64,000 nt of DNA from an uncultured Clostridium sp. (GCA_946487895.1 CAMLUO010000001.1:41540-105539), one strand, 5' to 3'; counted from the first letter of the stretch, positions 66-56,928 are shown. Notes: a model not told the origin generated them from the letters alone. Numbers and translations: made by a program.

Positions 66-130
66 CAGGGATTCAAGGGACGGTCCTAAAAATCCCTGTT
101 TTTAGGGATTCGGGGACGGACCTTTAAATC
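66..130. repeat. GGGGACGG-core palindromic repeat: one full hairpin (66-98) plus a truncated second copy (104-130)
   Basis: CAGGGATT-caagggacggtcctaaa-AATCCCTG followed by a T run. Near-identical copies occur at 13109-13140, 38749-38780, 38826-38857 (inverted) and 55677-55708 (inverted). Confidence 0.8.
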
Positions 131-230
131 TAATTAATCAAAATTTTTATTTATTATTTACAAAAAGGTGAATTTTTATGTGTATTTTTTTAAATTTAAA
201 TAGTTTTCTTAGTTTTATTCACTATTTTAC

Positions 231-259
231 TTGAAAAATAATAAAATCCAATATATAAT
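231..259 (+). promoter_or_regulatory. Candidate sigma-A type promoter for the 291-2772 cassette
   Basis: TTGAAA (231-236), a 17-nt spacer, then TATAAT (254-259), about 30 nt upstream of the AAGGAGG RBS of ORF 291. Such matches can arise by chance in AT-rich DNA. Confidence 0.4.
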
Positions 260-290
260 TGACATAACTTAATATAAGGAGGTATATATT

Positions 291-608
291 ATGAAACTAT
301 CATTAATTAATGTATTTCAGAATGCTAGTTTTAAAAAATTAGACTGGCTGCCAGATTTGTTTTTTGGAATTGGATTTTTTGTTACTTTCTTGGCTATGTT
401 TTGGTTTCGGCCCAACTTAAACTGGCTTGCAATGTTAATGCTTCCCATATTGGTCGGCCTAGTAACAGAAGGATTATTTATGGTTATACATGGAATTTGC
501 ATCTGTTTAAAAAGCGATAACCATGAAATAAGATACCATAAATTTGATGAAGAAGATGACAAAAGTTATATATCTTCTAAATCTGATGAAAGATATAATA
601 AATTCTGA
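291..608 (+). CDS. Small hypothetical membrane protein (two predicted TM helices, charged C-terminal tail)
   Basis: AAGGAGG RBS at 277-283. Two hydrophobic stretches (LFFGIGFFVTFLAMFWF and LAMLMLPILVGLVTEGLFMVIHGICI). First gene of the cassette. No family recognised. Confidence 0.5.
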   Translation: MKLSLINVFQNASFKKLDWLPDLFFGIGFFVTFLAMFWFRPNLNWLAMLMLPILVGLVTEGLFMVIHGICICLKSDNHEIRYHKFDEEDDKSYISSKSDERYNKF

Positions 609-698
609 AATTCCAAAAACAATTTGCAATAATATTGAAAGGAGGGTAGTTTTTTAGTAACAAGTAGACTCTTTTGTATTATGAAAGGATAAATTATT

Positions 699-52948: not shown

Positions 52949-53506
52949 CTAATTGAACAAATTCATAGCTTTGTCTATTCCGTTTTTTATTATTTCTATA
53001 ACTGCATCTCTTGCTAAATCAGTACTTTTATTTAATATTTTCTGATCTTCTTCTGGAATTTTTCCTATAACATAATTGATTAAATCTCCTTTATGTTCAG
53101 GCTTTCCAATTCCTACTCTCACTCTTGGGAATTTTTCAGTTCCTATTTCTTTTATTACTGATTTCATTCCATTATGTGTTCCTGGTCCTCCTGTTTTTCT
53201 TAATTTAATTATTCCTGGTTCTATGTCTATATCATCATATATGATTATTAAGTTTTCTGTATTTAATTTATAGAAATCTATTATTTCTTTTACACTTTCC
53301 CCACTTAAATTCATATATGTTTGTGGTTTCAATAAAATAACTTTTTCTCCTTCTATTACCCCTGTCCCATATATTCCTTTGAAATTTGTTTTTGAAAATT
53401 TTATGTCATATTTTTTTGCTATTTTATTCACTGTATCAAATCCCATATTATGTCTTGTATTTGAATATTCTTCTTCTGGATTTCCTAATCCTATAATTAT
53501 ATACAT
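52949..53506 (-). CDS. pth: Peptidyl-tRNA hydrolase
   Basis: MYIIIGLGNP...Y..TRHN.GF, GG..GHNG.KS. Confidence 0.92.
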   Translation of the reverse strand: MYIIIGLGNPEEEYSNTRHNMGFDTVNKIAKKYDIKFSKTNFKGIYGTGVIEGEKVILLKPQTYMNLSGESVKEIIDFYKLNTENLIIIYDDIDIEPGIIKLRKTGGPGTHNGMKSVIKEIGTEKFPRVRVGIGKPEHKGDLINYVIGKIPEEDQKILNKSTDLARDAVIEIIKNGIDKAMNLFN

Positions 53507-53702
53507 TTTTTGCTCCTTGTTTTTTTATCACAATTATTTTATTCTTATATATTTTAACCTTTTTTTCTACTTTTTGCAAGCGATAAGCTTACTTTGATAA
53601 CTTTTCTCTATTTTTTATTTGTCAACAAGAAAAAAGCACCTTCAAAAAAGTGCCTTTAATTTTCTTACTATATACGTAAAATCTTTGATTTTCCCTATAT
53701 AA

Positions 53703-53987
53703 TTATTCTGCTGATTCTGTTGAGTTTTCTTCAGCTTCTGGTGCTTCATAAGCTTCTAAGATAGCTTTTTGAATTTTCTCTCTTGTTTCAGCATTGATTG
53801 GATGAGCTATATCTTTGAATTCTCCGTTTGGAGTTTTTCTACTTGGCATAGCTATAAATAATCCATTTTGGCTTTCGATAACTTTAATATCGTGAACTGC
53901 GAATTCGTTATCGAATGTTACAGAAGCAACAGCTTTCATTCTGTTCTCTGAATTTACTTTTCTTAAACGTACATCTGTGATTTGCAT
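53703..53987 (-). CDS. spoVG: Septation/sporulation regulator SpoVG
   Basis: [11 protein letters not shown]......[49 protein letters not shown] at 53987. Confidence 0.92.
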
Positions 53988-54294
53988 TTTAAAATGCACC
54001 TGCCTTCCCTAAGTTTAATTTTGTACATATCGTTTAATTCTATGTACATTTATATTATTCTGCATAAAAAACTTTTTTCCTTCTTTTTTTTACAAAAAAG
54101 TTAGATTTTATTAATACGATTTATATCAGGGCTTTAATTTATATTTTCTAGGTTATTTATTCACATTTTATTTGATTTTTCATATTATAAAATATAGTTT
54201 TTTTATGGTATTTTTAGTAGAAGTATTGAATTTTCACGTATTTAAGTATATAATACTTTTACTAAATGAAAATTCCTAGGGGAGTGATTTTTTT

Positions 54295-55677
54295 ATGCCA
54301 GATATAACTAATTTAAAAAAATATAAAAATATACATATGATTGGAATTGGTGGCGTTAGTATGAGTGGAATAGCCGCAATATTAAAAAATTGGAGCTTTA
54401 ACGTTACTGGTTCTGATATGTTTGATTCTGAAACAGTACAAGAATTAATAAATAATGGAATTAATGTTACAATTGGTCACAATTTAGAAGATGTTGCGAA
54501 TTCTGATGTTGTGGTTTATTCTGCTGCAATAAAAAAGGATGACCCAGAAATGTTAGAAGCAAATAGGCTTAATATTCCTACTATTGAAAGAGCTGATTTT
54601 CTAGGTGAGATTACTAGATGTTATACAGATACTATATGTATTTCTGGAACTCATGGAAAGACTACTACTACTTCTATGGTATCTATTGCATTTATTGAAG
54701 CTTTAAAAGACCCAAGCATTCAAGTTGGAGCTTATTTAAATGCTATTAAAGGGAATTATCTAGTTGGTAATAGTGAACATTTTATTATTGAAGCATGTGA
54801 ATATGTTGAAAGCTTTTTAAAGTTTAGCCCTAAGGCTGAAATTATTTTAAATATTGATAATGACCATTTAGATTATTTTAAAACTTTTGATAATATAAAA
54901 AATGCTTTTATTAAATATGTTAAATTATTGCCTGATGATGGTATTTTAGTAATTAATGGCGATGATAAAAATTGTTTAGATTTAAAACAATATACAAATG
55001 CAAAAGTTACTTCTTATGGTATTGATAATAAAAATGCTGATTTTTATGCTGATAATATTGTATTTGATAATGATGGATTTGCATCTTTTGATGTATATCA
55101 TCAAGGTAATTTATTTGGACATTTTAGTCTTTCAGTTCCTGGAAAGCATAATGTTTTAAATGCATTAGCATGTATTTGTTTATGTGCAAATTATTCAATT
55201 GACGTTCCACATATTCAATCTGCTTTGAAAAAATTTACTGGAGCACATAGAAGATTTGAATTTAAAGGTAGAATAAATAATGATATTAGTGTTTATGATG
55301 ATTATGGTCATCATCCTACTGAAATTGTTGCAACTGCAAATTCTTTGAAAAATAAAAAATATAATGAATCTTGGGTTATTTTTCAACCTCATACATATAG
55401 TAGAACTAAAAATTTATTAGATGATTTTGCAAATGCTTTGTTAAATTTTGACCATATAATTGTTTTGGATATTTATGCTGCAAGGGAAACAAATACTTAT
55501 AATATTTCTTCTAAAGATTTAGTTGATAAAATTAATTCTTTGGGTAAAACTGCTTTATATATTCCTGATTTTGATGAATGTGTTTCTTTTGTAAAGTCTC
55601 GCGTAAAACCTAATGATGTTGTTATGACTTTAGGTGCTGGTACTGTTACTCAAATTGGCCCAATGTTATTAAAATAG
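54295..55677 (+). CDS. murC: UDP-N-acetylmuramate--L-alanine ligase
   Basis: HMIGIGGVSMSGIA, GTHGKTTTTSM, DDYGHHPTE. Confidence 0.93.
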   Translation: MPDITNLKKYKNIHMIGIGGVSMSGIAAILKNWSFNVTGSDMFDSETVQELINNGINVTIGHNLEDVANSDVVVYSAAIKKDDPEMLEANRLNIPTIERADFLGEITRCYTDTICISGTHGKTTTTSMVSIAFIEALKDPSIQVGAYLNAIKGNYLVGNSEHFIIEACEYVESFLKFSPKAEIILNIDNDHLDYFKTFDNIKNAFIKYVKLLPDDGILVINGDDKNCLDLKQYTNAKVTSYGIDNKNADFYADNIVFDNDGFASFDVYHQGNLFGHFSLSVPGKHNVLNALACICLCANYSIDVPHIQSALKKFTGAHRRFEFKGRINNDISVYDDYGHHPTEIVATANSLKNKKYNESWVIFQPHTYSRTKNLLDDFANALLNFDHIIVLDIYAARETNTYNISSKDLVDKINSLGKTALYIPDFDECVSFVKSRVKPNDVVMTLGAGTVTQIGPMLLK

Positions 55678-56928
55678 AGGGATTTTAAGCTCCGTCCCCG
55701 AATCCCTCTTGCTTGTTTTAACATTATATCTCCAAACACTGCATACCCTTCTTCTGGATTATTTACTAACACATGTGTAACCGCTCCTATAAATTTTCCA
55801 TTTTGAATTATTGGTGAACCTGACATTCCTTGTATTATTCCTCCTGTTTTCTCTAATAATCTGCTATCTGTTACTTTTATTTCCATACTTTTATTATCAT
55901 AATTATTTTCTTTAAAAATTTTCTTGATTTCTATCTCATATTCTTGTACTGTTTTATTATCTAAACTACAAAGTATTGTTGCTTTACCCAGTTGTATCTC
56001 ATCTCTTGTTGCAACTTCCATTTCTTTTGAGGTATCTATACTTAATCCTGATAAATTATCTACTTTTCCATATATTCCAAATTTTGTGTTTTTATCTATT
56101 TCTCCTATATTTACTTGATTTTCTATTGTACCTTGTATTTTTCCCGGATTTCCACTTTCTCCTTTTGTTATATTTAATATTCTTGTTGTTACAAACTCCC
56201 CTGATGCAATATTTATTAATTCTCCTGTGTCTATATCTGTTATTCCATGTCCGCAATGCTCCAAATGTTTTCGTACTTGGTTCATAAAATGTTACTGTTC
56301 CGACTCCTGCTGCACTATCTCTTACCCATAATCCTAATTTATATTCATCTTGGCTTGTTTGTACTGGCTCTATGCTACATTCTTTGCTTTCTTCTTCATG
56401 TATATATGTTATTTTTATATCTTTTCCATTAGATTCATTAACACATTCTACTAATTCTTCTGTTGATGCTATATATGTTTCATTTATTTTGGTTATTCTG
56501 TCTCCTTCTTCTATTCCTGTATTTTCATATGGTTTATACATTTTATTGTCTATTCCTTCTATTTCTGACATTCCTACTACTAATACTCCACTTGTATATA
56601 GTTTTACTCCTGCAATGTTTCCTACTGGTATTACTGTTGTTTTTGGTATTACTGATACATCAATATTCTTTATAAATAGCTTGTCAAATAGACTTATTGT
56701 TATATTTTCTTTTCCCACTTGATTTATAGTTTTTTCTCCTGTGCTTGCTGAAACACTTAGAGCTTCATTTTCAGATTTCATAGTGATTCCAAAAAATGTT
56801 TTTAATGATATATTTTCTCCCTCAAATATTGTAATTTCATCTGGCATATAGTTTATCACTAAAATATATACATATATAATTAATAAAAAAATTAATAATA
56901 ACATTTTCTTTAAAAACTTTTTAAGCAT
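55650..56928 (-). pseudogene. spoIVB: SpoIVB peptidase (S55), split by a 1-nt insertion just before the catalytic His
   Basis: ORF 56092-56928 carries the signal anchor, PDZ domain (GIEEGDRI) and WVRDSAAGVGT.TF. ORF 55650-56285 carries GHGITD and GMSGSPI. Sense strand reads GCA TTG C GGA CAT. Deleting the C (plus base 56253) gives TFGAL-GHGITDIDTGE. Confidence 0.88.
55677..55708. repeat. GGGGACGG-core palindromic repeat (inverted)
   Basis: GAGGGATTTTAAGCTCCGTCCCCGAATCCCTC. It overlaps the murC stop codon and the 3' end of the spoIVB reading frame. Confidence 0.75.

Follow-up and report, generated by a model that had tools for sequence, protein, structure and literature searches.

To our knowledge, systems made up of repetitive extragenic palindromes (REPs) and REP-associated tyrosine transposases (RAYTs) have been studied almost wholly in Proteobacteria. 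Here we describe two related families of GC-rich hairpin repeats, named F1 and F2, in a 64-kb stretch of DNA (28% GC) from an uncultured Clostridium sp. (GCA_946487895.1 CAMLUO010000001.1:41540-105539). This whole stretch is called the window, and coordinates given without another source are counted from its first letter. We document both families and their architecture, show that they are dispersed and that copies turn over, and find them physically associated with RAYT genes in related genomes. Together they are a clear example of the known REP/RAYT kind in uncultured low-GC gut Clostridia, and we consider it likely that F1 and F2 are REP-type dispersed extragenic repeats of this lineage, cognate to RAYT-type Y1 HUH transposases of single-stranded DNA. 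The system comprises two repeat families and two RAYT types that are apparently partners, its putative recognition motif is found in the hairpin loop and not at the hairpin foot, its full unit has a regular two-motif architecture, and it provides a concrete substrate for testing what the RAYT subclass bearing a helix-turn-helix (HTH) acts on.

The closest described elements are the TIRYTs, RAYT-like genes between inverted repeats that share GGGGWSAS as their motif; certain of these repeats make up moderately abundant families with dimers (PMC3733652, Di Nocera 2013). TIRYTs have been equated with RAYT subclass 2.1, which has a C-terminal HTH (of the Bac_DnaA_C, HTH_23 or HTH_28 type) and beside whose genes no REP-like structures were found (PMC6006769, Quentin 2018). 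Group 1 RAYTs also occur in Clostridia, where the flanking 16-mers are modestly repeated (PMC5581495, Bertels 2017). The TIRtron/TIRYT, subclass 2.1 and group 1 probably denote the same elements. As in TIRtrons, the RAYT-like protein found here is longer than classical RAYTs, inverted repeats of the type GGGG(A/T)(C/G)A(C/G) flank its gene, and the repeats also form dispersed families with dimers; its C-terminal extension is predicted to be helical and may resemble an HTH. The likeness to subclass 2.1 is one to its published description. The outer motif of F2, GGGGACAC (50292-50299, reverse strand), fits GGGGWSAS exactly (the related loci L064 and L127 have TGGGACAC), and F1 GGGGACGG fits it at seven of eight positions; the elements are therefore best filed with the TIRtron/RAYT kind. 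Unlike in TIRtrons or subclass 2.1, the motif here sits in the loop of a well-formed hairpin with a co-varying stem, direct doublets with a fixed 36-nt spacing dominate, and the host belongs to the 28%-GC uncultured gut Clostridia.

Classical REP/REPIN-RAYT systems (E. coli, Pseudomonas; structure 4ER8; Nunvar 2010; Bertels and Rainey 2011) share with the present one short GC-rich imperfect palindromes that are extragenic and often at gene 3' ends, and an apparently single-copy, syntenic Y1 HUH gene between inverted copies of the same repeat. In both, a genome can contain several RAYT types, each with a repeat family of its own. Our repeats differ from classical REPs in having no GTAG at the hairpin foot and inverted REPIN doublets only as a minority, and our proteins differ from classical RAYTs in an extra C-terminal domain. 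Elements of IS200/IS605 also have a Y1 HUH fold and sub-terminal hairpins recognised on single-stranded DNA; the proteins described here, however, score poorly with the IS200 model (18-22 bits), carry Y---NP instead of the class 1 signature and have no TnpB partner, and their gene is apparently single-copy at a fixed locus where insertion sequences (ISs) of that group are multi-copy. A resemblance to CGTC-tagged REPs and Rickettsia palindromic elements lies in the reverse complement of the motif, CGTCCCC, which contains CGTC. CGTC REPs have an unpaired terminal CGTC tag, a stem of 8-9 bp, a loop of 4-5 nt and a CCA tail, and no transposase (PMC3733652). We rejected membership in this group, as CGTC is here inside a loop of 13-16 nt, a CCA tail is lacking and the repeats have an associated RAYT.

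Repeat loci in the window and the plan of their units

Ten GC-rich hairpin loci with the common motif GGGGAC(G) are present in the window, all of them intergenic or at gene ends. Dispersed palindromes in such positions had been described in an earlier note made from the sequence alone, and every copy it listed was recovered at, or within a few bases of, the place given there. The loci and the one adjoining RNA gene are as follows.

63-101, plus strand: full F1 hairpin (unit A), AAACAGGGATT-CAAGGGACGGTCCTAAA-AATCCCTGTTT, directly upstream of the ribosome binding site (RBS) of a minus-strand gene starting near position 53 (nhmmer 64-135, E = 2e-20; fold)
102-135, plus strand: F1 half unit (unit B), TTAGGGATTCGGGGACGGACCT, forming with unit A a direct doublet of 36-nt spacing
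13108-13143, plus strand: single F1 hairpin between priA and def (spacer of 54 nt), antisense to the two genes (nhmmer)
19450-19510, minus strand: variant with a different stem, TTTAATGCA-TTGGGGACGGCCCCCTTT-TGCATTAAA, and a GGGACAGG tail, at the end of pheS (fold)
27648-27684, minus strand: short form of F2, GTGTCGCAT-TGGGGACGTTTCTC-ATGCGACA followed by T7, adjoining the clpX stop codon on its downstream side (nhmmer, fold)
31275-31349, strand undefined: 75-bp segment with a AGGGGACA...TGTCCCCT inverted repeat, upstream of tig (comparison with L104, fold)
37127-37184, plus strand: long form of F2, a hairpin with a GGGGACGTTTC loop, TGGACATTTTTGTCCA and a GGGACAC tail, abutting the metG RBS in the divergent metG/pepV spacer, upstream of metG (nhmmer 37127-37178)
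38747-38784, plus strand: single F1 hairpin overlapping the pepV stop codon, followed by TTTTTTATTTT (nhmmer, fold)
38792-38858, minus strand: F1 doublet of unit A (38826-38858) and a degenerate unit B (38792-38825), starting 9 nt past the 3' end of 6S RNA (nhmmer)
38867-39059, minus strand: 6S RNA gene (Rfam RF00013, 86.5 bits)
50282-50344, minus strand: long form of F2 at the 3' end of rimO (nhmmer)
55673-55710, minus strand: F1 variant AGAGGGATT-CGGGGACGGAGCTTAA-AATCCCTCT without the inner palindrome, directly past the murC stop codon, between convergent genes (nhmmer)

The core AGGGGACGGTCCT occurred six times in the window when up to two mismatches were allowed, compared to 0.07 occurrences expected from shuffles. 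GGGGAC/GTCCCC was present 14 times, twelve times in the listed elements between genes or at gene ends and twice within genes. A census of the 64 kb with nhmmer at maximum sensitivity, using profiles from related genomes, recovered exactly the loci seen by the earlier reader (19482-19496 as a weak match) and yielded no hidden extra copies. The majority of the window genes are on the minus strand; the loci showed no strand bias within the window (four plus, five minus).

The F1 hairpin is AGGGATT-aGGGGACGGTCCT-AATCCCT, often with a half copy 36 nt further on. In its extended form, (A-rich lead)-N-AGGGATT-(A/T)-GGGGACGGTCCT-AAA-AATCCCT-N', the variable pair N/N' lengthens the stem. The long form of F2, a hairpin with a TGGGGACGTTTC loop and a second GGGAC(AC) about 35 nt downstream, is built on the same plan. 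A full unit measures about 60-70 nt. Its loop has GGGGACG(G/T)T(C/T)C on the 5' side, and the second GGGAC motif comes about 35 nt later; single hairpins and inverted pairs are derived from this unit by shortening or rearrangement. We counted arrangements for 251 F1 units from the window and 112 fetched loci (all fetched loci, these and others, have L numbers), bearing in mind that F1 counts are biased upward because the loci were gathered with the F1 pattern. There were 86 single units, 67 direct doublets of a full hairpin and a half unit 36 nt downstream, 14 convergent doublets and no divergent ones. The organisation of F1 units is non-random. The segment 104-130, described earlier as a truncated copy, is in fact the second half of such a doublet, since direct doublets with this spacing recur across genomes (67 of 168 F1 loci).

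What stays constant over all units is GGGGACG, on the 5' side of the loop, while the stems are fully different. More than 12 unrelated stem sequences bear the identical loop motif, among them AGGGATT, TGTCGCAT, TGTCCATT, TTGAACTTT, GAGACAAA, TTTAATGCA, ATCAAGA, GTCAATAGG and AAAAGGG. A small palindrome, GGAC-N-GTCC, had been noted in the loop; it exists, but in four units only, and is missing from the copy at 55677 (GGACGGAGC) and from half units (GGACGGACC), and therefore GGGGACG rather than the palindrome is the constant element. Perfectly complementary arms of at least 6 bp were found at 167 of 219 GGGGACG sites (76%) versus 6.2% of random sites; random sites were the control, a permuted-k-mer control being confounded by overlapping words of the same element. 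Folded as single-stranded DNA, the units gave stable hairpins with z-scores mostly around -4. A single covariance model for all stems was dropped in favour of nhmmer profiles, as MAFFT placed the 3' arms out of register because loop lengths differ.

Two of the loci changed class. The copy at 27653-27680, listed before as a variant, is present and is better described as the short form of F2. The AGGGGACA/TGTCCCCT pair at 31279-31332 also exists, as part of a 75-bp insertion (31275-31349) relative to a related genome: the segment has TTTCTA at both borders, is missing from the orthologous site in L104, and is tied to F1 and F2 solely via the common GGGGACA motif.

RAYT-type genes flanked by the repeats

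It had been proposed earlier that the palindromes are a REP-like family and possibly the target of a RAYT-type transposase. RAYT-type genes flanked by these same repeats were found in relatives of the window's organism, which supports the REP/RAYT inference, as do the many copies elsewhere described below. Queries for IS200, IS608 and the E. coli RAYT gave only weak hits. One of these was real, a Y1_Tnp gene in L002 located about 215 nt downstream of an F1 hairpin; the others were SpoIIE phosphatase and were discarded. With the L002 protein as the query, more genes were identified in L001, L064 and L036.

In L064, the closest relative of the window's organism, a 257-aa Y1 gene has the long form of F2 on both sides in inverted orientation (ATGTCCGTTTGGGGACGTTTCCGTTTGGACATTTTTGTCCATTTTGGGACACATC ... 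GATGTGTCCCAGAATGGACAAAAATGTCCAAACGGAAACGTCCCCAAATGGACAT). Inverted F2 copies on both sides of a RAYT gene were also seen in L036 and L127-130, and the repeats beside the gene in L064 and L127 share 90% identity with the F2 copy at 37127-37184 in the window. Relatives of the L064 RAYT that are 55-97% identical share the arrangement small open reading frame (ORF) - RAYT - radA. At 55-65% identity, the radA-linked homologues have other GGGGAC hairpins on their flanks, and repeats with other stems and the same motif flank homologues in L113, L120, L122, L123, L131 and L133.

The second RAYT type, that of L002, lies about 200-300 nt downstream of an F1 hairpin in L002, L117, L118 and L119, always after a ferredoxin gene (four species). 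Homologues of this type in other organisms have hairpins on both sides with very different stems, and always GGGACG in the 5' flank and CGTCCC in the 3' flank. Taken over all types, repeat-flanked RAYT genes with this fixed inverted polarity were found at more than eight independent loci. Judged from the sequences of the fetched loci, the RAYT gene appears to be single-copy at a conserved chromosomal locus and vertically inherited. We also considered the F2 site at rimO in the window as a RAYT locus that lacks its gene. This was rejected, as the radical-SAM gene that adjoins the RAYT shows a similarity of only about 70% and is therefore a paralogue.

Sequence and structural comparisons place the protein, by all indications, as a class 2 Y1 HUH enzyme that is closer to TnpA-REP than to IS200 TnpA. 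Pfam Y1_Tnp was matched with E = 3e-15, and all 15 aligned members matched this family. The NCBIfam model of REP-associated tyrosine transposases (NF047646, REP_Tyr_transpos) gave 61-72 bits, below its curated cut-off of 80 bits, compared to 18-22 bits for the IS200 model. The HUH motif (NHxH) and Y-x3-N-P were invariant in the aligned members, and Y---NP is the class 2 (RAYT) signature (PMC6006769). A search of the PDB with a single sequence returned nothing relevant; with the family profile, the sole match was 4ER8, the E. coli TnpA-REP, a RAYT with its REP hairpin. The AlphaFold model of one member, P0011, had a pLDDT of 84, and its top fold match was again 4ER8 (about 16% identity over the aligned core), with the IS608 and ISDra2 transposases next in rank. 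The lengths of the proteins range from 244 to 267 aa, with about 110 extra C-terminal residues that are predicted to be helical (residues 182-248 in the model), and one of the 15 members matched a Pfam helix-turn-helix.

By analogy with E. coli TnpA-REP and IS608, we infer that the RAYT is catalytically active, that it mobilises the repeats and that the GGGGAC motif has a role in this. A single-copy, chromosomally fixed RAYT would recognise the folded hairpin and the GGGGAC motif on single-stranded DNA. It would cleave and rejoin DNA, so that copies are spread, deleted and rearranged between genes. Copies would then persist where they are harmless or useful. Many copies are placed right at stop codons, and roughly half of the single ones, having an A-rich lead and a T-rich tail, would probably be terminators or 3'-end hairpins.

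Several points weigh against the assignment of F1 and F2 to RAYT-type enzymes. We know of no experiment that shows binding or cutting of such hairpins by a RAYT of this subclass. The 64-kb window holds no RAYT or Y1 gene. F1 lies only on the 5' flank of its RAYT type, with no clear 3' copy at the four genes, and two of these four F1-associated genes are degraded. The score with NF047646 is under the cut-off, as given above, and the statistics come from loci that were gathered with the F1 pattern. Direct doublets predominate over inverted doublets of the REPIN type (67 vs 14, with 86 single units), and the canonical GTAG head of REPs is absent from the 5' foot of the hairpin, where the pre-stem position is variable and preceded by A-rich sequence.

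Dispersal, gene context and alternative explanations

An 18-base F1 pattern was used to scan species-representative genomes. This gave at least 111 real stretches, in 29 metagenome-assembled genomes (MAGs) of low-GC uncultured Clostridia/Bacillota from the gut, including Clostridium sp. CAG:354 (CAG-354, which we take to belong to the GTDB order TANB77). One further match, in an Anaerolineae MAG with 53% GC (L108), had no hairpin and was set aside as a chance match. The window is 92-94% identical to the MAG BRZ_NR__bin75, and the presence of copies differed between genomes at about 90-94% identity when insertion sites were compared. At the orthologous priA-def site, L027 has two inverted hairpins around a core of about 210 nt, where the window has a single hairpin. 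Opposite the ordinary terminator at 2772-2820 of the window, L016 carries a doublet, and a tandem pair of L104 corresponds to a stretch of the window without copies (26252-26289). The clpX 3' site of L104 has a different hairpin. Such gain and loss of copies at orthologous sites, together with unrelated neighbouring genes, contradicts gene-specific regulatory hairpins. Of the two outcomes named in advance as unfavourable to a REP-like family, an absence of further copies and hairpins specific to particular genes, neither was observed.

The repeats have a marked position relative to genes. According to a simple longest-ORF gene model, F1 elements were in sense orientation between co-directional genes in 75 cases, antisense between co-directional genes in 36, between convergent genes in 37 and between divergent genes in six. 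Where the 5' side of the element faced a gene end, the hairpin began at the stop codon (median 0 nt, 112 same-orientation cases). Antisense copies adjoined the RBS, with the next start codon about 20 nt away. An A-rich lead was present in about 75% of copies and a T-rich tail in 47% of single F1 copies.

Of the alternatives, termination is the least unlikely. The hairpins would then be primarily host terminators or stabilisers of mRNA 3' ends, their likeness being due to selection and gene conversion and the proximity of RAYT genes incidental. The start of the hairpin at the stop codon, the A-rich leads and T-rich tails, and the copies after pepV, clpX and 6S RNA all fit this explanation. A hairpin followed by a T run is present at 38747 (pepV), at 27648 (clpX) and at 63-101. 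The sequence suggests that the pepV and clpX copies are likely terminators, and the copies at pepV, clpX and 6S RNA probably serve as terminators or 3'-end hairpins. The earlier proposal that some copies terminate transcription thus agrees with the T-tailed copies at pepV and clpX but does not extend to the priA-def copy at 13108, which has no T run on either strand. This copy, and the 36 antisense copies between co-directional genes, do not fit terminators. Termination does not need a conserved 11-nt loop sequence either, and it does not account for the fixed inverted polarity of repeats around RAYT genes. A simple terminator scan called none of the repeats, which it missed because their loops are long (14-16 nt). 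As an account of the families as a whole, we regard termination as unlikely.

Another explanation sees in the GGGGACG loop a site bound by a DNA- or RNA-binding protein of the host (nucleoid, processing or regulatory), with the repeats kept for that function, whatever spreads them. The invariance of the loop motif among variable stems would fit, as would the copies that often abut an RBS, about 20 nt from start codons in the antisense cases. However, there is no candidate protein, and the occurrence of both orientations argues against a purely RNA-level site. We consider this explanation, which is compatible with RAYT recognition and does not exclude it, very unlikely. Least credible to us are miniature inverted-repeat transposable elements (MITEs) mobilised by an ordinary DDE transposase, or palindrome-associated elements of IS200/IS605: the TTTCTA borders of the 75-bp insertion, the convergent F1 pairs around a conserved core of about 160 nt in several genomes and the genuine MITE-like family in the window (both described below) point that way, but neither F1 nor F2 shows terminal inverted repeats or target duplications where sites were compared, the core also exists without hairpins (L112), and the protein scores far better as a RAYT than as IS200 TnpA, has the Y---NP signature and is encoded at one syntenic locus beside radA in many species rather than in multiple copies.

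Recognition of F1 and F2 by RAYT-type transposases remains our preferred explanation. It might be extended to hairpins with a GGGGAC(G) loop as a general single-stranded DNA recognition element of the widespread HTH-bearing RAYT subclass (2.1/TIRYT). In gut Clostridia with reduced genomes, the repeats could on this extension be ready-made terminators (A-tract, hairpin, T-tract) that are mobile, insert exactly at stop codons and redraw the limits of operons. We offer this extension tentatively and hold it to be doubtful. The repeats probably set transcript ends, and they therefore matter for the annotation of these genomes.

Coding sequence is affected as well. The last 8-9 codons or so of rimO and its stop codon are inside the F2 repeat (50317-50344), and the pheS stop codon overlaps the variant hairpin (19501-19505), which indicates that the repeats contribute coding sequence at gene ends, providing stop codons and, as in rimO, last codons.

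Associated elements and other features of the window

Several contigs that we examined end in repeats. One (L119) ends inside a repeat copy (3800-3829). The fetched stretches of L038, L048 and L079 run to the contig end, and the pattern match is at most about 55 nt away from it. Such positions suggest that the repeats break short-read metagenome assemblies. The exact F1 pattern was also detected in two IMG/VR viral contigs (L136 7998-8017 and L137 6538-6557); a phage element was rejected, as these were the only two viral-contig matches.

At 218-2820 (plus strand), the window has 2.6 kb where a relative with 94% identity has about 340 bp (L016 6052-6604). F1 doublets are found at both borders of this site in the relative and at the left border only in the window. 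The segment encodes two small ORFs (105 and 141 aa) without a Pfam match and a 543-aa radical-SAM/SPASM protein, a content that suggests that it may be a peptide-maturation cassette.

Outside the window, a conserved long hairpin of about 160 nt was found between convergent F1 hairpins (L027 1354-1592, L032 2385-2639, and likewise L053, L030, L107, L063 and L066). In L112 (340-500) this core occurs without F1 hairpins. It has 17 base pairs with compensatory changes and the conserved blocks AATTTCGAATGCGAATGAAAT, GGAGAATCTCAAACTTGCTTTGAGAGGTGCC and ATGTAATGTTAGCCGAGAAATGA, and one MAG has at least two copies. The core could be an unfamiliar structured RNA or a palindromic mobile element. Neither it nor the repeat hairpins are covered by an Rfam family: 6S RNA was the sole Rfam match in the window, and there were no matches in 12 related loci.

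A second, unrelated family in the window is MITE-like, with terminal inverted repeats of about 25 bp (GTTGAAAAATAATTACAATTTTGGC ... GCCAAAATTTAATTCTTTTCCAAC) and without an Rfam match. Its three copies in the window (8182-8303, 9550-9623 and 10336-10457) are between genes of the asp23/DUF2273/nusB/xseA/xseB cluster. Further copies were found in L010 (4774-4895), L082, L084 and L096, and those from other MAGs are 90-96% identical. A short form of about 75 nt and a long form of about 122 nt with a nested 47-nt palindrome could be distinguished.

Finally, at least five neighbouring genes (143-269 aa) at 59271-62806 on the minus strand encode proteins with a near-identical N-terminus (MENASKALI and then a hydrophobic stretch); across 299 nt, two of the genes are 89% identical.

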